From a virus: a stretch of 64,000 bases of DNA. Below the pieces are notes generated by a model. That model ran no database searches. It had not been told where the DNA came from and saw nothing but the letters and a program-made list of their open reading frames with translations. This document shows, one piece after another, positions 6,841 to 34,243 of this stretch (position 1 is its first letter; each line of letters opens with the position of its first letter). The stretch covers positions 32,001 to 96,000 of the IMG/VR virus record IMGVR_UViG_3300036773_000146. One strand, 5' to 3'. The position numbers and the translations under genes were made by a program.

Positions 6841-7137
6841 TCAAAGCCCGAGGCCGTAGCGGCAGGTGTGCTGGAGCTGCGACGTGGTCTGCGAGAAACG
6901 CTGCGCGGTCACGTGCGCCTGGCCGTCGAGGATCCACGCGATCGGCGTGTAGTAGCTGTAGACGAGGTAGGAGACGCGACCCTCGGCGACGGCCGTGCGC
7001 AGCGCGGCGTACTCCCCCTCGTTGAGCTGGCCCTGACCCACGCTGCCGGGATGCACCTCGGCGTGCGAGGACGCGGCCTCATAGGCCTCGCGGTTCTGGA
7101 TACGGACCTCGTATTGACTGCGCGTGAGTCGCGGCAT
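6841..7137 (-). CDS. hypothetical protein, paralog B
   Basis: VSYLVYSYYTPIAW; ATG after start motif. Confidence 0.75.
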   Translation of the reverse strand: MPRLTRSQYEVRIQNREAYEAASSHAEVHPGSVGQGQLNEGEYAALRTAVAEGRVSYLVYSYYTPIAWILDGQAHVTAQRFSQTTSQLQHTCRYGLGL

Positions 7138-7142
7138 GGCTG

Positions 7143-7200
7143 CCTCCTGTGCGGCTGATGTGGTAAGACCGAGCCTACCTGATCGGGTAGGCTCGGTCAA
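7143..7200 (-). promoter_or_regulatory. promoter/operator copy 3 plus start-associated motif
   Basis: TTGACC-N17-TAGGCT; perfect 13-bp arms around 7180-7185. Confidence 0.85.
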
Positions 7201-7310
7201 GATCTGATCGAGGGGACGGCGACCGAGAGCAGGGTTGCGCCGCTCGCGCCCAACCAGCCCGGCGCGCTGCCCTCGGTTCTTATGTGGCTGTCCACGCCGC
7301 CCGGCGGCTC

Positions 7311-8123
7311 TCAGACGAGCCGGAAGTGCTCGTCGGTCAGCTCGGTCAGCGACTTGGGCCCGAGACGGCGGATCTTCTTGCCCTCGCGCTTGGCGTTCCA
7401 GGCCTGAGCCAGCAGGCCCAGGAACGGCTTGACCAGCTTGGAGCCCTGGGTCACCTGGTTCATCCGGACGATCGCGTTGCGCAAGGTCAGCTCCGGGTCG
7501 CCGTCGATGAGGCCGGAGCCCTTCTGCACACCGGTCCAGAAGTCGACCGCCAGGGCCGGGTCGATCTCGTGGGTGAGGAAGTACATCGCGGCGGCCGCGC
7601 TCGGGATCGCCCCGATCTCGTGCCGCAGGTTGACCCCGTACCGCACGGCATTGATCATCGGCTCGCGGTTCTTCACGCCGAACTCGACGATCTCGGAGTC
7701 GGTGGGCTTGTAGCCCTCTGACTTGATCTCCTCGATCTGCCACAGGAGCACGATGCGGGCGGTGGCCGCCACCAGCTTCGCCGAGGGCATCTGGAACCGC
7801 ATGGTCAGTTCGTCGGCGGCCGTGCGCTTGCGCTGCTTGTCCATCTTGTAACGGTGCTGGCGGTCGATGCCCTCGATGATGATGAACTCGATCTGGCGGC
7901 CGGACTGGACTACGGCGGACAGCCGGTGCTGGCCGTCGATGAGGTTGCCGTCCTGGTCGAACTTGATCGTCTCCCCGATGTTGGGGAAGTCGCCGTTGGC
8001 CATGTCGCGGGCGAGCTTGTCCACCCAGTCCTGCGACAAGGTGCGGTTCTCGCAGTTCGTGGACAGCCAGTCCTTGGCCATGCGCGGCGTGACGAGCAGT
8101 TTGCGGTGCTTGAGTTCGGTCAA
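7311..8123 (-). CDS. ParB-like / DGQHR-motif protein
   Basis: VTPxMAxxWL..NR...LARDM...LIDGQHRL. Confidence 0.8.
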   Translation of the reverse strand: MTELKHRKLLVTPRMAKDWLSTNCENRTLSQDWVDKLARDMANGDFPNIGETIKFDQDGNLIDGQHRLSAVVQSGRQIEFIIIEGIDRQHRYKMDKQRKRTAADELTMRFQMPSAKLVAATARIVLLWQIEEIKSEGYKPTDSEIVEFGVKNREPMINAVRYGVNLRHEIGAIPSAAAAMYFLTHEIDPALAVDFWTGVQKGSGLIDGDPELTLRNAIVRMNQVTQGSKLVKPFLGLLAQAWNAKREGKKIRRLGPKSLTELTDEHFRLV

Positions 8124-8133
8124 GGGGGTGCTC

Positions 8134-8192
8134 CCTCCAGTGCGGGGTCTGTACGGTGGTTGACACTACCCGACCGAGTAGGATCTTGGCAA
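8134..8192 (-). promoter_or_regulatory. promoter/operator copy 4 plus start-associated motif
   Basis: TTGCCA-N18-TAGTGT; CTACCCGACCGAGTAG 8166-8181. Confidence 0.75.
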
Positions 8193-8200
8193 ATGAAGAG

Positions 8201-8244
8201 GTCGGAAGCGGGATCTGATCACTCAGCGTCATCCCGCTCCCGAC
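8201..8244. terminator. stem-loop, probable terminator
   Basis: GTCGGAAGCGGGAT...ATCCCGCTCCCGAC. Confidence 0.5.
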
Positions 8245-8310
8245 CTGGGAAAAGGCTTCGGGTCGCTCCAGGGGCTACCTCGAAGGTTGAAGATCGATTG
8301 TGACGCTGTG

Positions 8311-8613
8311 TCACAACCTCTCGATGGCCTCGCCGACGAGGTCATCGGCAGCCCGGTAGTCCACGTTCTCGATGTCGCCGTCCTCGTCGAGGATGCCCTT
8401 GATGATTCCGGCCTTGATCAGGGCCGCGTACACCTCGTACTGCCAGCCGCTGTTGCCGAACGGGCGCTTGCCGTTGAAGGACTCTCCGTCCTCCCACACG
8501 CACGTCAGCAGCTTGATCAGATACGCCCGGACCGTGGTCGCACCGGCATCGTTGTCCATGGGGTCCATCGGCGCGGCCAGCACGGCGTCGAGCCTGGCGG
8601 GGTCGGTGCTCAT
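8311..8613 (-). CDS. hypothetical phage protein
   Basis: TVRAYLIKLL..VWEDGESFNGKRPFGNSGW. Confidence 0.7.
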   Translation of the reverse strand: MSTDPARLDAVLAAPMDPMDNDAGATTVRAYLIKLLTCVWEDGESFNGKRPFGNSGWQYEVYAALIKAGIIKGILDEDGDIENVDYRAADDLVGEAIERL

Positions 8614-8849
8614 GAATGCTCCTCGTCGTTTGCTCTGTCGCGGAAGCCATCGATCACCATGACGATGGTCCAGAAGCAGGTGTAGATCACGGCCGCGAAG
8701 GCGGCGTACACCAGGCCAGTCAGCGAGAACCCCGGCTCGGCGGCGCCAAGCAGGCCGCCCACGTCGGCGGTTGCCAGGATGAAGAACGTCAGCGAGAGCC
8801 AGCGCACCAGGAACGGCGGCGCGGTGACCTTGATCTTCTGCCCGCTCAC
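8610..8849 (-). CDS. membrane protein
   Basis: Two hydrophobic helices, GTGA overlap. Confidence 0.6.
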   Translation of the reverse strand: MSGQKIKVTAPPFLVRWLSLTFFILATADVGGLLGAAEPGFSLTGLVYAAFAAVIYTCFWTIVMVIDGFRDRANDEEHS

Positions 8850-9241
8850 TTGACCTCCAGGATGGGCACGCCGTAGCCGGTCACGCGGATCTGCACGAAG
8901 TGGCCGAGCGGGATGATGTCCAGGCCCGGCCGCGTGGTGAGGATCGCCGGGATGTCGTTGCCCTCGATCACCGCGTCCCGGGCCTCCAGCTCGTCCACGA
9001 CGGCGTACCGCACCGGCTCCCAGCCGACCACACTGCGGCCGTCCTTCGCGGCGTCTCCGGCGATCTGAGCCCGCATGTACGCCTCCACGCTCGCGTAGGT
9101 GCCCTCCTGGGCCACCAGGTTGCGCCCGATGACCTGCGCGGCGTCGTGCTTGGTCGTCTCGCTGGCATGCCGCATCACGTGCTCGGCGATCTTCTTGCCC
9201 ATGGCCTGGGCCGGGCGCTTGTTCGTGCGGGGGATGGTCAC
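8846..9241 (-). CDS. hypothetical protein
   Basis: Overlap-coupled ORF. Confidence 0.6.
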   Translation of the reverse strand: MTIPRTNKRPAQAMGKKIAEHVMRHASETTKHDAAQVIGRNLVAQEGTYASVEAYMRAQIAGDAAKDGRSVVGWEPVRYAVVDELEARDAVIEGNDIPAILTTRPGLDIIPLGHFVQIRVTGYGVPILEVK

Positions 9242-21128: not shown

Positions 21129-21692
21129 TCAGGCGGGGGTCTGGTCGGCGAGCTGGCGCACGCCGTTGCGCACGGTGCTGTAGTCGCCGCGCCAGTAGGA
21201 CGAGCGCTCGGGCAGAGTCTCCCGCTGATCGCGGACGGTCTCGTCCATGCTCGCCTCACGGCGGACCTCGGCCTCCAGGCGTGCCTCGAACTCCGGCGAC
21301 AGCGCGCGGTTCTCGTGGATGTAGCCCGCGCCCATGTGGACCAGCTCGACCTCGTCGCAGCAGGGCGCGAACTCGGGGCCGGTCTCGCAGAACTTGTCGC
21401 CACCGTGGGTCTCGGCGGTCTGGACGCCGTGCTTCTCGCACCACCACTGGTTCGAGCTGTAGGAGCAGTCACTCAGGCCCTCGAAGCGCGCCGAGCCGAA
21501 CGCGTGGGTGATCTTCTTGACCTGGTCCTCGGTGGGGCCGTCGGTCCAGTTGACCGCGACCGAGCTGCCACCCGCGTACCGGTCGATGCGGACCGAGAAG
21601 AACCGCGCGGGCAGCTGCGGGAAGGCCAGCTTCAACTGACGGCGCATGAGCTTCGCGACCTCGGCGGTGTCGATGTGGCGGGCGTTCGACAT
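21129..21692 (-). CDS. LPD29-like (large polyvalent protein-associated) domain protein
   Basis: AKLMRRQLKLAFP...FSVR..YAGGSSV.V.WTDGPT..QV......F.G..D. Confidence 0.75.
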   Translation of the reverse strand: MSNARHIDTAEVAKLMRRQLKLAFPQLPARFFSVRIDRYAGGSSVAVNWTDGPTEDQVKKITHAFGSARFEGLSDCSYSSNQWWCEKHGVQTAETHGGDKFCETGPEFAPCCDEVELVHMGAGYIHENRALSPEFEARLEAEVRREASMDETVRDQRETLPERSSYWRGDYSTVRNGVRQLADQTPA

Positions 21693-21697
21693 GGTGT

Positions 21698-21762
21698 CCT
21701 CCGGTGCGGGGTGATCCCTGACTGACAAGACCCACACTACCCGTTCGAGTAGTGTGGGTCAA
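21698..21762 (-). promoter_or_regulatory. promoter/operator copy 10 plus start-associated motif
   Basis: TTGACC-N17-TAGTGT; palindrome 21737-21752. Confidence 0.85.
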
Positions 21763-23454: not shown

Positions 23455-23513
23455 CCTCCGGTGCGGCTCGTGCTGACGTCGCCGACACTACCTACCCGAT
23501 CAGGTAGTGTCAA
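23455..23513 (-). promoter_or_regulatory. promoter/operator copy 12 (operator shifted 4 nt) plus start-associated motif
   Basis: TTGACA-N17-TAGTGT; palindrome 23492-23507. Confidence 0.85.
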
Positions 23514-24109
23514 CCCCGGGAGGCAGACCACCTGTCAAGAGCCTGCCAGAGAGCCATCTCTCGGCCCCAGGTGGTGTCGATGACGTCCAGCGTGGCCGCC
23601 TGGTCGAGGTCGCGCACGGCCGCCGAGGAGACGTGCTGGAGCATGGTTTCCGTGGTCCAGCGGCCGCCGGTGACCACCACGCCGTCTTCCTTGGTCAGCG
23701 GCTCGTGATGGACCAGGCTGTCCAGGACAAGCATTCCGGCGCCCTCCAGGTGACGCCGAAACTCCAGCAGCTCCGTGCGCGCCAGGTACCCGCTGACGAA
23801 CGCGCGCTGCTCAACCAGGGTGTCGTTGATCCACCAGCGGCCGCCGGGCTGACTCTGGTCGGTGAAGAAGCCAGCCTCGTTGGCCCGCGCCAAATACGGC
23901 AGCAGGGACGTCGTCTCGTGATCCGGCACGTCGTACCCGCTCGGATGCGCCCCCAGCTCACCCCGAGCCCAGCGGGCGCCGCGCTCACTCAGCTCGGGCA
24001 AGGTACGGGCCCGGCACCACTCCCGGCGCAAACCTGCGTAGTAACGCATGTCATCGACCCCGACGACATCGAGCACATACCTGATCTTCCTCTTGAGCAT
24101 CGACAACAT
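23510..24109 (-). CDS. DUF6919-like protein
   Basis: W..ARTL.EL....ARW..G.....P.Y..PD.ET..L...L...N.AGF.T..SQPG...QRA.V.G. Confidence 0.7.
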   Translation of the reverse strand: MLSMLKRKIRYVLDVVGVDDMRYYAGLRREWCRARTLPELSERGARWARGELGAHPSGYDVPDHETTSLLPYLARANEAGFFTDQSQPGGRWWINDTLVEQRAFVSGYLARTELLEFRRHLEGAGMLVLDSLVHHEPLTKEDGVVVTGGRWTTETMLQHVSSAAVRDLDQAATLDVIDTTWGREMALWQALDRWSASRG

Positions 24110-24525
24110 CAGTCCTCCTGTGCGTAGATCTTCAACTGGTCTTCCAGAGCGTGCGCGACGCTGCGGCCGCTACCGATGATCAGCGCCTTGGCCTCGTCGT
24201 AGGGATCACGCGGCACCCAGAAGCGCACGCGGGTGCGCTTGGTCTTCGGTCGGAACGGCGGGCGCCGGGCCGGATCGCGATGGGGATCGGGCAGAGCCAG
24301 CACGGCCGCCCGGAACAGGGCCATGCGGCACACGGCGGTGAAGTCCACGCACTCGGCCTGGGCGATGGCCTGGGCCCGCTCGACGACGGCCAAGGCAATC
24401 TCCATGTCCGCCTCGAACGTAGGCAGCGACGGGTCGAGACCGTGGGCGGCGAGGATCTGCCGGAAGCTGGCCTGGATCCGCGCGATCTCCGCGTACCCGG
24501 CCGCGTAGCCCTCGACCCGACTCAC
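24109..24525 (-). CDS. putative ribbon-helix-helix regulator
   Basis: RVRFWVPRDPYDEAK......RSVAHALEDQL. Confidence 0.55.
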   Translation of the reverse strand: MSRVEGYAAGYAEIARIQASFRQILAAHGLDPSLPTFEADMEIALAVVERAQAIAQAECVDFTAVCRMALFRAAVLALPDPHRDPARRPPFRPKTKRTRVRFWVPRDPYDEAKALIIGSGRSVAHALEDQLKIYAQED

Positions 24526-24953
24526 TCCCCCTCGACTTCGGCGGGCACGGGAGCATCCAGCTGGACCAGGTCCACCAGCGGCCAGTCGTCGGAGTAGACG
24601 CCGTACATGTCGTGGCGCTTCTCGTGGGCCAGCACCTCCAGCCTGGCGCGCGTGAGCGGGTAGGTCACGAAGTCCACGCTCACGCCGCTGCCGAACACCG
24701 CGCGCCACTGCTCCTTGTCGTCGTGGGTGTAGGCGGCCCGCCACTTCACCGGCTGGCGGGTGACCGGCCGGGTCGGGTAGGCGACCCGGCCGCTGTGCAC
24801 CGGCTTGCCGTCGGCGTCCTGGCCCCATTCGAGCTTGCCGTGGCGGATCTGCTTCACCGGCCGGTTGGCGGCTCGGTCCGCCGTCTTGTCCAGCGCGCGG
24901 AACACGCCGCGCAGGGCCCGGCCGAGCCGCCGCGTCCACTTGCCCTTCGCCAT
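24522..24953 (-). CDS. hypothetical protein
   Basis: AGGAGG RBS; divergent from the plus-strand island. Confidence 0.65.
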   Translation of the reverse strand: MAKGKWTRRLGRALRGVFRALDKTADRAANRPVKQIRHGKLEWGQDADGKPVHSGRVAYPTRPVTRQPVKWRAAYTHDDKEQWRAVFGSGVSVDFVTYPLTRARLEVLAHEKRHDMYGVYSDDWPLVDLVQLDAPVPAEVEGE

Positions 24954-25022
24954 GGCTACCTCCTGAGGATCAAACGTGAGGGTAGGTTACCCCATAGCCT
25001 ACGGGGGCAGTACCATACGGTC

Positions 25023-25295
25023 ATGACCTACGACTCTGAGCGTGATGACGCCCCCAGCTACGAGGGCGAGGTGACCGAGGAATCAACCCGGCTCCGGCCC
25101 CGTACGTGGGCTGCGCTGATCGCGCTCGGGGCCGAAGGCATCTCCCTGCTGATGGGCAACTACCTGATCTCCGTCGGCCTGATCGTCTGCTACGTGGCCT
25201 GGATGTTCCTGCGGGACGCCCTGCGCCGCCGACGGCGAAACCGGGACTGGAACACCGTGGCCAACAACGTGATGGAGGGGGACGAGATCCGATGA
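25023..25295 (+). CDS. small membrane protein (Spd-like context)
   Basis: Two TM helices, ATGA overlap with next gene. Confidence 0.6.
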   Translation: MTYDSERDDAPSYEGEVTEESTRLRPRTWAALIALGAEGISLLMGNYLISVGLIVCYVAWMFLRDALRRRRRNRDWNTVANNVMEGDEIR

Positions 25296-26044
25296 CCGAG
25301 CACCAGAACCAGGCGGCCAACCTGCCCGGTGCCAAGGGCGTCGCGTGGGTGTGCTTTCTATTCGGCACGGTCGTGAGCGTGGCGTTCAACGTCATGGACT
25401 CGTTCATCCCGCCGGTCGGCGCACCTGCTGGCTGGACGCCAGGCCTGTGGGTGATCGTGTTCGCCGCGACGTGGCCCCTAGCACTGATCGGCTCGGTTGA
25501 GCTGCTGGCCCGGCTGGGCTGGAGCGACACCATCTTCGCCAAGATCGTGCGCTACGGGGTGATGAGCGCCGTGGCGGTCTTCGCGGCCGTTATCTCCTAC
25601 CAGCACATCCGCGAAGTCCTGCTCTCCTGGCGCTACAACGAGCTGTCCGCGAACGTCGGCCCGCTCGTCATCGACGGCCTGATGATCCTGGCTGGTTACG
25701 CCATGGTCATGGGGTCGAAGAACGGCGAGGCCAAGCCCTCACCGAAGACCTCTACCCAGGCCGCGCCGGAGCTTCCGGCCAAGTCCGAGCCGGGTCCGGC
25801 TCTGGGCGACATGCTGAAGCCCCTTCCGGTCCAGAAACCGCCGGTGCGCAACCGGACCAACGGGATCAAGCCCGCCCAGGCTCGCCGATCGGCTGGGCCC
25901 AGTACTCAAGACATCGTCAGCACCCTGCGCAAGCGCGGAGACGTCCCCACCAAGCGGGCGATCGTCGCTGAGTTCGGCGTGGGCTCGCTGAAAGCCCAAG
26001 AAGCTCGCAATCTGCTCAAGAGCGACGAAAAGGAGGAATTGTGA
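25292..26044 (+). CDS. DUF2637-like membrane protein
   Basis: SVAFNV...WPLALIGSVELL...AAVISYQHI.......PLVIDGL; C-terminal HTH-like segment. Confidence 0.75.
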   Translation: MTEHQNQAANLPGAKGVAWVCFLFGTVVSVAFNVMDSFIPPVGAPAGWTPGLWVIVFAATWPLALIGSVELLARLGWSDTIFAKIVRYGVMSAVAVFAAVISYQHIREVLLSWRYNELSANVGPLVIDGLMILAGYAMVMGSKNGEAKPSPKTSTQAAPELPAKSEPGPALGDMLKPLPVQKPPVRNRTNGIKPAQARRSAGPSTQDIVSTLRKRGDVPTKRAIVAEFGVGSLKAQEARNLLKSDEKEEL

Positions 26045-28050
26045 GCAAAGGCAAGAACTCAGTTTTCGGCATCGCCACCGGCGTCGCTCTCTCCCAGGGC
26101 CTGCCCGGCTTCATGAAGACGTTCCGCCGGTGGTCCTTCCGGTTCCGGCGCGTGCTCACCCCGGTGTGGACGGCCTTCCTCGTCTACCTAGTCGCCGTCG
26201 TCTGGCGCTGGCAGATCCCGCAGTGGTGGCCGGTGGTCCTGGTGCTGCCGCTGCTCGGCGTGGGCCTGGCCTGGGGTGGCCCGCACCTGAGCGAGCGCTG
26301 GTCCCGGGTGGTGATGAAGCTGGTCCCCGACGGGCTCGACAAGGGCCAGGACGGCATCCTGGACCGGCTCACCGAGCGGCTGTACCTGGCCATCCTGCTG
26401 AGCTACACCGGCGCCTACCTGGCCGTGCGGATCGTAGGCGGCGCGAGCTACGTGTCCGGCCTGCTCTGGCAAATCGGGCTGGGTGCCTTCGGGGTGACCT
26501 ACTGGTACCACCGCCGGGTGCGCAGCTTGGGCAAGGCGAACAAGTACGTGAAGAAGTGGGCGCGCTTCGCCGACCGCGAGACCTGCCCGCCGACGCTGAT
26601 CTCGCTGGTCGGCTCGAAGGTCGTCAAGCACGACGTCTCGCCCAACGGCAAGGCGATCACCCTCACGATCAAGCTGGCCGAGGGCGTCACCGCCGACCGC
26701 ATCGGTCACATGGCCGAGTCGCTGGACTCCTATTTCAACCTGCGCAAGGGCGCCACGACCATCACCGAGTACAAGGACCAGTCCCGGTATGCGGTGGCGA
26801 AGTTCGTGCCGAAGGACCCGTGGGAGGACAAGATCGAGCACCCGCTGCCCGGTCCGGACAAGATCAGTCTGGCGAGCAGCGGCGGCCGATTCTCGATGGG
26901 CATCTATGCGAACAGCGACGAGCTGATCTACCAGCTTCAGCACACGCTGCTGTGCGGCACCAACGGCTCGGGCAAGTCCGGCTGGCTGCACTCGCTGATC
27001 GCCTGGCTGGTCCCGTGCCGGGATGTGGTCCTGCTGGGCATCGACATGGCCCAGGGGGCGACCCTGAACGTCTGGCGCAAGACGTTCGCCCTGCCGATCG
27101 CCACGGACGTGGACAGCGCTCTGATCATCCTGGAGAAGGTCTTCGCGGTGATCAAATATCGCGAGGGCGTGCTGAGCAAGGCGAGCGAGGAGGACGACGA
27201 CGCGGCCGACTCGTTCGTGCCGTCGAAGAAGACCCCGTGGATCGTGCTGATCATCGAGGAGTTCCCGGACCTACTGGCCGAGGCCAAGAACACCGAGCGG
27301 TACGACTCCAAGGGCAACGTGATCGGGAACATGTACGACCTGCTCGTGCTGCTGCTCGGCCGGATCGCGAAGAAGGCCCGTAAGTGCGGTATCCGGCTGG
27401 TCTTCGCGACCCAGAACGGGACCAAGGTCGACACGGGCTCGAAGGAGATGCAGGGCCAGCTGAAGGCCACCGTGGGCCTGCGTCTGGACCAGAACCAGTC
27501 GAAGAACCTGTGGGGCGGCGGCAGCTTCGCTGGGCCCGGCTGGAACTCCACCGATCTGGGCCTGGGCGAGTTCCTGCTCCGCGACGAGGACCACTCGGTT
27601 CCGGACAAGGCCAAGGGGTACTGGGTCGACAACGCGGCCCGCCGCAAGATGGTCTCCGACAACGTGGGCCCGAGCGGTACCCGCGAGGTCTACCTGGAGC
27701 CGGACGCATGGTCTCTGCTGATGAGCGAGACCATGGGCCTGGACGTGGAGGCCGACGTTCCCGAGGCCGAGCGGACCGAGGCCGACGATCGCCGGGACCG
27801 CGTCGTGCGATACCTGGAGGACCACTGGACCGAGTACCGCAACGGCGTGAAGGCCCAGACCATCAGTGACGACCTGGAGATCCCGACCTCCACGCTCTAC
27901 CGGGATCTGGACGTACTCCGGAGTGACGACCCGGGCCCGTGCCGGGTCCAGGTGCTGAAGAAGTGGTACTACCCGGCGGGGAAGGCTCCCACGGAGTCCG
28001 GCCCGGCCCCGGTCATGGCGTCCATCCAGGGCGAGCAGACCGGCGGCTGA
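26041..28050 (+). CDS. traB: TraB/FtsK-SpoIIIE-family DNA translocase
   Basis: N-terminal TMs; Walker A GTNGSGKS; IDMAQG; LIIEEFPDL; KARKCGIRLVFATQ; C-terminal winged HTH. Confidence 0.8.
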   Translation: MSKGKNSVFGIATGVALSQGLPGFMKTFRRWSFRFRRVLTPVWTAFLVYLVAVVWRWQIPQWWPVVLVLPLLGVGLAWGGPHLSERWSRVVMKLVPDGLDKGQDGILDRLTERLYLAILLSYTGAYLAVRIVGGASYVSGLLWQIGLGAFGVTYWYHRRVRSLGKANKYVKKWARFADRETCPPTLISLVGSKVVKHDVSPNGKAITLTIKLAEGVTADRIGHMAESLDSYFNLRKGATTITEYKDQSRYAVAKFVPKDPWEDKIEHPLPGPDKISLASSGGRFSMGIYANSDELIYQLQHTLLCGTNGSGKSGWLHSLIAWLVPCRDVVLLGIDMAQGATLNVWRKTFALPIATDVDSALIILEKVFAVIKYREGVLSKASEEDDDAADSFVPSKKTPWIVLIIEEFPDLLAEAKNTERYDSKGNVIGNMYDLLVLLLGRIAKKARKCGIRLVFATQNGTKVDTGSKEMQGQLKATVGLRLDQNQSKNLWGGGSFAGPGWNSTDLGLGEFLLRDEDHSVPDKAKGYWVDNAARRKMVSDNVGPSGTREVYLEPDAWSLLMSETMGLDVEADVPEAERTEADDRRDRVVRYLEDHWTEYRNGVKAQTISDDLEIPTSTLYRDLDVLRSDDPGPCRVQVLKKWYYPAGKAPTESGPAPVMASIQGEQTGG

Positions 28051-28346
28051 CCCCCGTCCGCACCGTCAGCGCCCCCACTCGCCTCGTGCGCGTGGGGGCG
28101 CACTCGTGTGCCCGTCCACCTGCGCGCCTGCGGCCCCGCGCGTTTACACACAGCGTTATGTATCACGGGTGTGCGAGCACCTAGCGCCACGCATTCTCAC
28201 GCTGGGTGCGCCCTCGCGCGTAACGTGCGCAGGCGCGCGAGAGGGAATCTTACCCCGAACGGCCCGATGATCATGTTTTCGCAGGTCACCCCACCTCTAT
28301 GGCCTTCTCCAGCGTCCTGCCCTTTTCCCACCGTTCCCACACGCCA

Positions 28347-28380
28347 GAAGGCCCCGATGGGAGTAGCCATCGGGGCCTTC
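28347..28380. terminator. bidirectional terminator hairpin
   Basis: Perfect 14-bp stem GAAGGCCCCGATGG/CCATCGGGGCCTTC between convergent genes. Confidence 0.75.
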
Positions 28381-28402
28381 GTGGTGACGCTGTGTGAGGA
28401 GA

Positions 28403-28597
28403 TCAGAGGGTGTGGGCGCCGCACGGGAAGAGCCGGGTGGGGTGCCAGACCTGCCAATGGCCGCCCTTGGCGATCCACAGGCCGTCGTCGCGGTGGCACA
28501 CGGGGCACCGCTGCTCGTGCCGTTCTACCGCCGCGACGAGGTCTCTCTCGGGGTCGGCGCTCATGGCAATGCCGTGGTCTTCGGTGGCGATGCTCAT
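28403..28597 (-). CDS. small hypothetical protein
   Basis: ATGA overlap. Confidence 0.55.
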   Translation of the reverse strand: MSIATEDHGIAMSADPERDLVAAVERHEQRCPVCHRDDGLWIAKGGHWQVWHPTRLFPCGAHTL

Positions 28598-31621: not shown

Positions 31622-31882
31622 TCAGGCGCGAGCCCGGGAGAGGGCGCGCCGCTCGTCTTCGGTGAAGCCGCCGAAGACACCGTCGTCGAGACCGTTGTCG
31701 AGTGCGAACGCCAGGCATTCCTCGCGCACCGGGCAGCGCGCGCAGACGGCCTTGGCCTCGGCGATCTGCCGCTCGGCCGGACCGACCTCGGAGATCGGGA
31801 AGAACAGCTCGCCGTCCTCCCACTGGCAGGCGGCGTCCTGCATCCAGCGCACCTGGCGCATGTCGAACTCGAACGTGAACAC
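31622..31882 (-). CDS. whiB: WhiB family transcriptional regulator
   Basis: W..DAAC...LFFP...AKAVCARCPVREECL..AL.....GVFGG.TEDER. Confidence 0.95.
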   Translation of the reverse strand: MFTFEFDMRQVRWMQDAACQWEDGELFFPISEVGPAERQIAEAKAVCARCPVREECLAFALDNGLDDGVFGGFTEDERRALSRARA

Positions 31883-32856: not shown

Positions 32857-33225
32857 TCATCCTGATTCGTGGTACCTCAGCGGCCCATGAACCAGGACGT
32901 ACTTGGCAAGGACGTCCCGCGAGATCCGGCCGCGCTCGTTCACCTTGAGCCCCTGCTTGGCCGCCCACGCCCGGATGGCGAGGGACTCGGCCTTGTGGGC
33001 CTCCTTGGGCGTCATGCCCTCGGTGATCTGCAAGTCCATCACGGGCGTGGCCGCGTCGACGAACTCCTGCAGGCGCTGGCGCAGGTCGGTCGCGTTCTCC
33101 TTGCTCAGATCGATCATGTAGTTGATCCCGTCCAGGCCGAAGATGAGCTGCTCGTCGGCCACCACCTGGTGGCCCCGCGCGCGTTCGAGGTCGTCCACCT
33201 TCTGCCGGATGACCTGCTCTGCCAT
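32857..33225 (-). CDS. lsr2: Lsr2-like nucleoid-associated protein
   Basis: VDDL...FGLDGINY.IDLS.ENA..L...L...IRAWA...G..V..RGRI. Confidence 0.95.
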   Translation of the reverse strand: MAEQVIRQKVDDLERARGHQVVADEQLIFGLDGINYMIDLSKENATDLRQRLQEFVDAATPVMDLQITEGMTPKEAHKAESLAIRAWAAKQGLKVNERGRISRDVLAKYVLVHGPLRYHESG

Positions 33226-33359
33226 CGTCTGCCTTTCGAGCGAGTTTCGCGTGTAATTTCCCAGAGTTCTGAGGAGATCCGAGCGTATCTCGATCACCTC
33301 TTTCACCGCAATGGCACCGGTATAAGCAGTGCCTTTTCGAGCTGATAAGAGTACTAATT

Positions 33360-33394: not shown

Positions 33395-34243
33395 CTACAG
33401 GCGCGAGCGGCACACCGGGCCGATCCCGGCCGTGTCCTGGAGGTACTTCAACAGCTTGGCCACACGGTCCGGGCAGTCAGCGACCATGCCAGCCGAAGAG
33501 TTGCACGCTCCGCACAGCAAGCCCCTGAACTCCCCGGTGGAGTGATCATGATCGACGTGAACCCGATTGCCCGGCTCGGGCGTCCCTTCCCACCCGCAGG
33601 CTTCGCAGCGATTGCCCACCTGCGCCAACCTGTCCAGCACCGCGTCTGCGTCCACTTTGAGCGTTCTGGCACTTTGCCGGAGAGCGCGGTAGAGCCACCT
33701 TTCTGGGTCGGCCTTCCACAGCTCCCGGTCTTTGTCCCTAGCCGCCTTCCTGCGCTCCTCGTACACGTCCGGGCTGTCAGCTTTTAGAGTGCGGAGCCGA
33801 TCCCTGGTCTCGCGAGCAGCGCAGTCCCGGCATCGGGACCGAAGCCTGGTACTCCCGTGCGTGGTCTTCCGCCACCCGAATTCCTCGACCGGCTTGGTCA
33901 ACCCGCAACCGGTGCACTCCTTCTCCGCCTTCGGCGGCTCGAAAGACTTCTCGTAGCAGATGGCGCAGACGTTGCTGCCCTTTCGCTTCTCCCGGCCGCA
34001 GGGGCAGGCATCGCTGCGCACCGACTGGTCGTAGTGCCGAGCGCAAAGGCCCTTGCTGCGCACCGGCTCTCCGCAGTCATCCAGCACGCAGACGCGCCCT
34101 TTGGCTGGCTGGTACTTCGGCAGTGTCGGCCCGACGTCCTTGCGACCGCTTCGGATCCAACGGTCGTAGTGGAGGGCGCAGAGCCCCTTGGTCCTCGGCG
34201 GCTCTGCGCATCCGCCCACTTCGCATTCTGTGGAATCTGTCAC
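33395..34243 (-). CDS. endonuclease VII-like (HNH) homing endonuclease
   Basis: CEACG...VHVDHDHSTGEFRGLLCGACN; N-terminal CxxxxC..GLCxxHY repeats. Confidence 0.88.
   Translation of the reverse strand: MTDSTECEVGGCAEPPRTKGLCALHYDRWIRSGRKDVGPTLPKYQPAKGRVCVLDDCGEPVRSKGLCARHYDQSVRSDACPCGREKRKGSNVCAICYEKSFEPPKAEKECTGCGLTKPVEEFGWRKTTHGSTRLRSRCRDCAARETRDRLRTLKADSPDVYEERRKAARDKDRELWKADPERWLYRALRQSARTLKVDADAVLDRLAQVGNRCEACGWEGTPEPGNRVHVDHDHSTGEFRGLLCGACNSSAGMVADCPDRVAKLLKYLQDTAGIGPVCRSRL

Follow-up and report, generated by a model that had tools for sequence, protein, structure and literature searches.

A conjugation-type gene cassette with a TraB-like DNA pump in a contractile-tailed phage and its relatives

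We analysed a stretch of viral DNA of 64,000 nucleotides (hereafter the window), which corresponds to bases 32001–96000 of the 149,735-bp IMG/VR virus record IMGVR_UViG_3300036773_000146 (CheckV completeness, 100%). Third-position GC (GC3) phase together with the translations delimits in this window a plus-strand operon of three genes at 25023–28050 (hereafter the cassette), which encodes a small membrane protein, a DUF2637 protein and a TraB-like translocase of the FtsK family (hereafter the pump). The features of the locus are as follows (aa, amino acids; dsDNA, double-stranded DNA).

24109–24525, minus strand: 138-aa protein, candidate regulator, second gene of the divergent operon (GC3 phase)
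24522–24953, minus strand: 143-aa protein, first gene of the divergent operon (GC3 0.93; GGAGG Shine-Dalgarno sequence)
24981–25016, both strands: putative bidirectional promoter-operator, assigned by inspection
25023–25295, plus strand: 90-aa small membrane protein (GC3 phase, sequence)
25292–26044, plus strand: 250-aa DUF2637 protein, SpdB-like (Pfam PF10935)
26041–28050, plus strand: 669-aa TraB-like FtsK-family dsDNA translocase (Pfam, model, trees)
28069–28101, plus strand: hairpin directly after the pump stop codon, with 14-nt arms that are 93% complementary
28218–28237: conserved non-coding block 1, GCGTAAC..GCGCAGGCGCG, single copy in the genome
28268–28288: conserved non-coding block 2, TGATCATGTTTnCGCAGGTCA, single copy in the genome
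28347–28380, both strands: hairpin terminator for both directions of transcription, flanked by the pump gene and the convergent 28403–28597 gene; its 14-bp stem is perfect and its loop has 6 nt
28403–28597, minus strand: gene convergent with the pump gene

An earlier reading of the letters (hereafter the sequence-only reading) had described, at 24109–28380, the sole plus-strand operon in 64 kb, and had taken it for a translationally coupled actinomycete conjugation module inside a phage. Apart from the cassette, the window indeed has no plus-strand unit of several genes, and the rest of the genome has one; nearly all of the ~234 genes called in the whole replicon lie on the minus strand. The operon itself proved real, but it starts at 25023, since a divergent pair of minus-strand genes occupies 24109–24953. 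Its genes are translationally coupled, as had been proposed, with ATGA and GTGA overlaps between successive reading frames. No coding periodicity was found in the 352 bases at 28051–28402, and no Rfam family was detected in 24850–28500. Megablast of the region retrieved no match among 50,697 phage and 72,556 plasmid records. The NG86 (Nei-Gojobori) dN/dS ratios against a related locus (L027) ranged from 0.38 to 0.67 for all five genes, a crude estimate given GC3 values above 90%, on which we do not rely.

The 669-aa pump scored well above the cut-off of the Pfam family FtsK_SpoIIIE (PF01580; 45.8 bits, E = 6e-12, cut-off 24), and is thus a member of this superfamily; it also matches the phage FtsK/SpoIIIE-like families of PHROGs. 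An AlphaFold model built from 44 homologues (pLDDT 83) predicts a helical membrane domain (residues 8–177), a beta domain (193–255), the motor (283–541) and a winged helix (580–645; H-H-H-beta-beta), which agrees with the TraB layout recognized in the sequence-only reading. The top Foldseek hits were FtsK motor domains (E ~1e-18), followed by TcpA, a conjugative coupling protein, and EccC, and a profile-to-PDB search agreed with this ranking. Walker A (G306-x-x-G-x-GKS313), Walker B (D406-E407) and further motor residues are invariant in the 44 homologues, and Pfam families of C-terminal winged helix-turn-helix (HTH) domains were found in pump homologues. The modelled protein has an intact motor of the FtsK fold, preceded by a membrane domain at the N-terminus and followed by a winged helix at the C-terminus. 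Two homologues carry inteins at the identical P-loop site, between GTNG and SGKSG: a mini-intein of 158 aa in P0003 (residues 311–468; L028:6001–8466) and an intein of 389 aa in P0051 (residues 303–691). Both are canonical class 1 inteins, with Cys1, His-Asn at the end and Ser at +1, and the longer one probably holds a homing endonuclease.

Among the NCBIfam families, plasmid_TraB is the best for the pump (42.6 bits, against 17.6 bits for FtsK PRK10263). An exhaustive phmmer search with the pump against 1.84 billion representatives yielded 861 matches. Seventy of the 76 nearest full-length non-phage representatives matched the plasmid_TraB model (best E = 1e-111), and the sampled contexts of those representatives were mobile-element-like, namely an island that encodes a GntR regulator as well as a serine recombinase, an actinomycete integrative and conjugative element (AICE) with the arrangement UvrD-like helicase/HTH_36-tra-xis-int, and a DUF2637-TraB pair. 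In the trees generated by FastTree (117 rows) and IQ-TREE (44 rows), with E. coli FtsK as the root of each, a single clade (support 99) united all proteins that have a phage context; its sister holds an Amycolatopsis chromosomal copy. The phage and Amycolatopsis clades were nested in a clade (support 100) containing an AICE protein, and proteins named plasmid TraB by the annotation pipeline PGAP appeared in the neighbouring clades. In the phylogenetic comparison that the sequence-only reading had called for, the pump thus falls with AICE/plasmid TraB rather than with chromosomal FtsK (represented by a single outgroup). This placement and the predicted membrane domain, motor and winged helix agree with a TraB-type translocase in the broad sense; judged from its sequence, the pump is TraB-like but not a TraB equivalog, its score against the curated model being discussed below.

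The two partners of the pump are membrane proteins. The 90-aa protein, which has an acidic N-terminus, one hydrophobic stretch and an Arg-rich tail, is 49–59% identical in three related loci (L001, L005 and L006), and at its position most relatives have a gene for a protein of 56–102 aa with a single transmembrane (TM) segment. The 250-aa protein passes the Pfam cut-off for DUF2637 (PF10935; 26.9 bits, cut-off 22.8), as its earlier label had it, and of the 18 proteins that take its place in relatives, 17 match this family (best E = 2e-36). Its model predicts four TM helices (12–146), a disordered Pro-rich linker and, confidently, a C-terminal three-helix HTH (205–249). The fold matches for this HTH were weak only, all to the DNA-binding domains of GntR, DasR and AraR, and a Foldseek search with the model gave no significant PDB match. 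By tblastn, the 250-aa protein had no match among the 50,697 phage and 72,556 plasmid records, and two further DUF2637 queries had none among the phage records. As a separate observation, the DUF2637 linker of one relative (L016:4887–5915) contains an in-frame insert that is HNH endonuclease-like, with His/Cys-rich motifs, according to inspection of its translation.

The module was found present, intact and syntenic in every relative examined, whereas its absence or decay in relatives would have told against the sequence-only reading. We detected ~50 pump homologues, all metagenomic, at 39–76% identity. In all 22 related loci with DNA, the three genes keep their order and run counter to the neighbouring genes, down to 32% identity, and a convergent YdjM gene occurs within ~3.5 kb downstream in every locus that reaches that far. 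The loci derive from CheckV-complete genomes of two size classes, ~60 kb and ~150–155 kb, and the data suggest a common core between phages of very different genome sizes. The records behind L006, L007, L012, L015 and L020 (G001–G005) carry the cassette with its YdjM neighbour in both size classes. From these sequences, the cassette appears to be a core function kept by an old lineage of virulent-type actinomycete phages.

Counterparts of the cassette exist in bacterial chromosomes and plasmids. The nearest cellular relatives of the pump reside in two Amycolatopsis genomes (L035 and L032; 36% identity), in the order small TM protein, 152-aa protein, DUF2637 protein (E = 9e-22) and TraB-like protein with a winged helix, followed by a GntR/UTRA regulator. 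The order of the small TM, DUF2637 and TraB-like genes is the same as in the phage, whereas Amycolatopsis adds the GntR/UTRA regulator and a Fic gene. This island adjoins comEC and holA in the chromosome, and no integrase was found in its 8-kb flanks. In the annotation of a 13.5-kb Streptomyces plasmid, the genes are arranged as GntR, small protein, DUF2637, TraA and TraB, and in that of a 29.5-kb Streptomyces plasmid as GntR, TraA, TraB, one further gene and DUF2637, with kilB close by. As DUF2637 genes stand beside traB in these plasmids, the whole module is regarded as homologous, and the kinship with conjugation modules stated in the sequence-only reading is borne out for two components and for their order, which are homologous to those of actinomycete Tra/Spd modules. 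We are thus highly confident that the cassette, in homology and architecture, is a conjugation-type module. Its sequences indicate that it is derived from actinomycete plasmid conjugation genes, a direction of transfer that rests on a tree with a single outgroup. Apart from this, we observed that the island of Amycolatopsis sp. WAC 01376 (L035, 6606–17481) lies by comEC, a PALP-family gene and holA, and includes a Fic protein and about ten genes without family; a PALP gene is located just upstream of the cassette in L031 too.

The pump is not the only translocase of this kind in phages. In the cultured Streptomyces phage Gilgamesh, the FtsK-like protein gp10 belongs to another deep clade, which it shares with a 131-kb Streptomyces plasmid protein; actinophages have therefore gained such pumps at least twice, and on the present trees their ‘FtsK-like’ genes go back to no fewer than two independent origins. 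The Gilgamesh genome (MN234216.1) contains a DUF2637 gene (75985–76440; E = 8e-17) as well as gp10 (6956–8869), but the two are ~68 kb apart and form no cassette.

The 69-bp spacer between the cassette and the divergent operon is nearly invariant over six loci, although the proteins encoded there are just ~50% identical. By inspection, we assigned to it a plus-strand promoter comprising a –35 element TTACCC (24987–24992), an 18-nt spacer and a –10 element TACCAT (25011–25016), with six bases left before the ATG at 25023, and a mirror-image promoter directed at the divergent operon. A consensus promoter scan missed the cassette promoter. The arrangement, as read by eye, suggests that the cassette mRNA is leaderless and made by the host polymerase. 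A near-palindrome, ACCCCATAG-C-CTACGGGGG (24989–25007), lies inside the spacer shared by both promoters and occurs once in the 149.7-kb genome. Its sequence differs from that of the 16-bp palindrome CTACCnGAnCGGGTAG of the neighbouring minus-strand promoters, which is situated between the TTGAC-like and TAGnnT elements of 15 such promoters and looks like the operator of a regulon.

A divergent gene is located at 24109–24525, as had been noted before, but its earlier label as ribbon-helix-helix (RHH)-like is weakly supported. The C-terminus of the 138-aa product follows a beta-helix-helix (RHH-like) pattern, and its language-model neighbours at 0.88–0.89, some with RHH_3 or ParG, are a lead only; the protein matched neither a Pfam family nor a PDB sequence. 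It is 54–60% identical in L001, L005 and L006. The 143-aa protein keeps 29–33% identity in relatives and had no family match and no PDB or structural match.

Downstream of the pump gene, the hairpin at 28347–28380 is the perfect terminator seen in the sequence-only reading, with a 14-bp stem and no T-run. A consensus terminator scan missed it because of the missing T-run, and three compensatory pairs are found in L028. Block 1 recurs in L027, in L028 and, at a greater distance, in L001, L005 and L006. Block 2 is likewise conserved in distant relatives, and has a second copy just past the pump gene in those last three loci. Both occupy the position of clt in Streptomyces plasmids, and by this analogy we treat them as candidate cis sites only. 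The sequence-only reading had anticipated an 8-mer site for the winged helix, but no such array came to light: no 7- or 8-mer occurs three times or more in 28051–28346, no cluster was found close to the cassette, no 6- to 8-mers are enriched past the end of the pump gene, a genome-wide search for over-represented 8-mers was negative, and neither block 1 nor block 2 is an 8-mer array.

The replicon is a contractile-tailed phage (myovirus), because it encodes a portal, a major head protein, a prohead protease, a tail sheath, a baseplate wedge and minor tail proteins as well as a large terminase and replication genes (DnaE-type polymerase, DnaB-like helicase, primase, UvsX-like protein and single-stranded DNA-binding protein); the terminase-encoding phage of the sequence-only reading is therefore confirmed. 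Known phages are distant, the polymerase being ~31% identical to its best match. The record ends in a 127-bp direct terminal repeat, a typical k-mer overlap size of assemblers; the record thus looks like a circular assembly in which the repeat is an assembler overlap and does not give the true virion ends. The genes for WhiB and Lsr2 indicate that the host is an actinobacterium.

The absence of an integrase noted before extends beyond the window, as neither a tyrosine nor a serine recombinase (PF00589, PF07508) nor ParB (PF02195) was found across the complete 149.7-kb record. Five complete relatives checked lack a tyrosine integrase too, and no tRNA was found within the window. The proposal that the element is a phage-plasmid did not survive these results: ParB and an integrase are missing (ParA was not searched for separately), and the replication genes (DnaE-like polymerase, DnaB, primase and O-like initiator) are of phage type. 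Likewise, identity as an AICE or a conjugative plasmid was rejected, as there is no match to PF00589, PF07508 or PF02195 and virion genes are present.

Other features of the replicon are the following (window coordinates unless stated).

140, 1944, 7175, 8166, 11416, 17580, 18596, 19852, 20194, 21737, 22771, 23492, 31924, 34861 and 41149: CTACCnGAnCGGGTAG sites in minus-strand promoters
21129–21737: LPD29 (large polyvalent protein-associated) domain protein, in the accessory region close to the cassette
23510–24109, minus strand: DUF6919 gene (Pfam), continuing the divergent minus-strand run
31622–31882: WhiB (3.6 to 5.3 kb from the cassette, together with Lsr2)
32857–33306: Lsr2
33395–34219: Endonuclease VII domain protein, in the accessory region close to the cassette
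100449–104659 of the complete record (G000), plus strand: replication initiator/DnaC-like/helicase operon, the other plus-strand multi-gene unit of the genome

Past the window end, all four genomic copies of GTAACAGC are located inside 200 bp of the O-like replication-initiator gene (G000:C1:101007–101207; L023:5007–5207), and look like lambda-like origin iterons inside the initiator gene.

What could a phage gain from such a cassette? Thoma et al. 2015 (PMC4447253) showed TraB and the Spd proteins to be the apparatus of intramycelial plasmid spread, in which SpdB2, a four-helix, pore-forming membrane protein, binds dsDNA and co-purifies with TraB; in one sentence, they proposed virion-independent movement of phage DNA for the SpdB2 homologues of phiC31 and VWB. 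The cassette may serve the translocation of phage dsDNA through septa or between cells, a function to which we give about even weight. If this is the case, host RNA polymerase would transcribe the operon from the sigma-70-like promoter as a leaderless mRNA, under the control of a repressor on the unique palindrome, which the divergent operon may encode. Pump subunits would assemble into a hexameric pore in the cross-walls or tips of hyphae, and the DUF2637 and small membrane proteins would join it as accessory or targeting subunits similar to Spd proteins. Through its winged helix, the pump would read a cis site of the phage, for which the blocks at 28218–28288 are candidates, and the motor would drive replicated phage dsDNA into adjacent compartments or hyphae, so that one adsorption event could exploit more mycelium than the infected compartment. 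More tentatively, and with somewhat more doubt than belief, we extend this to the whole phage lineage of ~60- and ~150-kb genomes, which would move naked genomes over cross-walls or between touching hyphae via a TraB/Spd apparatus.

Several points weigh against translocation. The score of the pump against the NCBIfam TraB equivalog NF041214 (42.6 bits, E = 2.8e-11) falls far short of the cut-off of 800. The root of the trees rests on one outgroup, and the direction of transfer is therefore not proven. No array of 8-mers of the TRS (TraB recognition sequence)/clt type was found beside the pump gene or elsewhere in the genome, and no skewed words resembling KOPS (the FtsK-orienting polar sequences) were found genome-wide beyond codon effects, as the 8-mer skew in the genome is due to coding on one strand. 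The phage locus has no GntR-type regulator, and its divergent genes match no family in Pfam or NCBIfam. The genome of 150 kb is ~10 times larger than the typical cargo plasmids of TraB. The host may be non-mycelial; Amycolatopsis, which harbours the nearest cellular kin, speaks only indirectly on this point. Finally, both the phage and its host are uncultured. Nevertheless, we favour translocation over the explanations below in view of the profile scores, the trees, a partner of plasmid type and the dedicated cis elements.

Alternatively, the pump may have a developmental or host-takeover role, acting on DNA of the host or the phage at septa of sporulating or vegetative hyphae. In the host, SffA is an FtsK-family pump with a small membrane partner, SmeA, and the cassette, with its own small membrane protein beside such a pump, recalls SmeA-SffA by analogy of layout. 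In a variant of this explanation, phage genomes would be loaded into spores as a carrier state, or the segregation of the host chromosome would be disturbed. Papers on Streptomyces phages group phage FtsK-like genes with those for WhiB and Lsr2 and regard them all as mimicking developmental factors of the host, and the WhiB and Lsr2 genes lie close to the cassette here. Nevertheless, the pump groups with AICE/plasmid TraB and not with chromosomal FtsK, both in bit scores and in the trees, and the DUF2637 partner belongs to a family of plasmid transfer regions. We consider this role, with its variant, unlikely.

A role in exclusion or defence, in which a membrane complex blocks or expels the DNA of rival phages or conjugative elements, or hinders the transfer of a resident AICE, would suit an autonomous, separately regulated and inverted cassette in an accessory-gene region, which is moron-like; PHROGs likewise assigns the FtsK/SpoIIIE-like proteins of phages to the category ‘moron, auxiliary metabolic gene and host takeover’. 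Defence genes, however, turn over fast, whereas the cassette is fixed in position and order down to 32% identity and in two size classes, and a winged helix with private cis blocks better suits the recognition of the phage’s own DNA. We therefore judge exclusion quite improbable.

The pump might also be made early and pull the remaining large genome through the thick envelope, as the second step of a two-step injection. The host-type promoter and leaderless mRNA, both read by inspection, suggest very early expression, and the model places the pump in the membrane. Nevertheless, relatives of 60 kb also keep the cassette, and the 127-bp terminal repeat, being a likely assembler overlap, does not place the physical ends. 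We know of no precedent for a genome-entry motor of such kind, and regard this explanation as very unlikely.

That the cassette is an inert passenger, an AICE remnant captured by the phage without a role in its life cycle, accords with its conjugative-element ancestry but is scarcely credible, and was rejected, in view of the deep syntenic conservation, intact frames, invariant catalytic residues of the motor, inteins and conserved regulatory DNA.

FtsK-like genes in actinophages, and the idea of phage spreading through SpdB2 homologues (PMC4447253), are already present in the literature. What is new is that a phage clade without a detected integrase or ParB carries a complete and deeply conserved Tra/Spd-type cassette, that its pump falls inside the AICE TraB radiation, that the cassette has an operator and cis blocks of its own, and that inteins occur in the P-loop. 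In the literature searched, we found no description of a phage Tra/Spd cassette, of the AICE-TraB placement, of its operator and cis blocks or of the inteins at the P-loop. The 2015 one-line speculation can now be replaced by a concrete hypothesis with named parts, that is, the pump, the DUF2637 partner, the small membrane protein, the operator and the cis blocks.

Little is known of phage spread within a compartmentalised mycelium. To our knowledge, plasmid TraB/Spd is the only dsDNA cell-to-cell pump known in actinomycete hosts. If translocation by the cassette is genuine, multicellular bacteria would be open to a virion-independent, contact-dependent route of infection that bypasses receptors and envelope defences, and the boundary between infection and conjugation would be blurred. 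Plaque formation, burst size and receptor-based resistance in Streptomyces-like bacteria would then be read differently.

Among known phages, the FtsK-like translocases of Streptomyces phages (e.g., Gilgamesh gp10) and of Bacillus SPO1-like phages are likewise phage-encoded FtsK_SpoIIIE motors, but are at most 27% identical to the pump. The DUF2637 protein and SpdB2 are both four-helix membrane proteins found beside a pump; SpdB2 binds dsDNA, and the DUF2637 protein is predicted to have a C-terminal HTH, but the two differ in length (DUF2637 protein, 250 aa; SpdB2, 409 aa), the likeness to pSVH1 SpdB2 being one of layout and not of compared sequences. A further close parallel is TraB of Streptomyces plasmids and AICEs (pSVH1, pIJ101 Tra and pSAM2 TraSA), with which the pump shares the motor, membrane domain and winged helix, as well as an operon of small, translationally coupled membrane proteins and a divergent regulated promoter. 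In contrast, the phage pump is only ~25% identical to these proteins and resides in a virulent-type 150-kb myovirus without int, rep, par or a GntR repressor. Where the cellular and plasmid relatives have a GntR regulator, as TraB systems do with the repressor TraR/KorA, the phage locus has a unique palindromic operator in its place.

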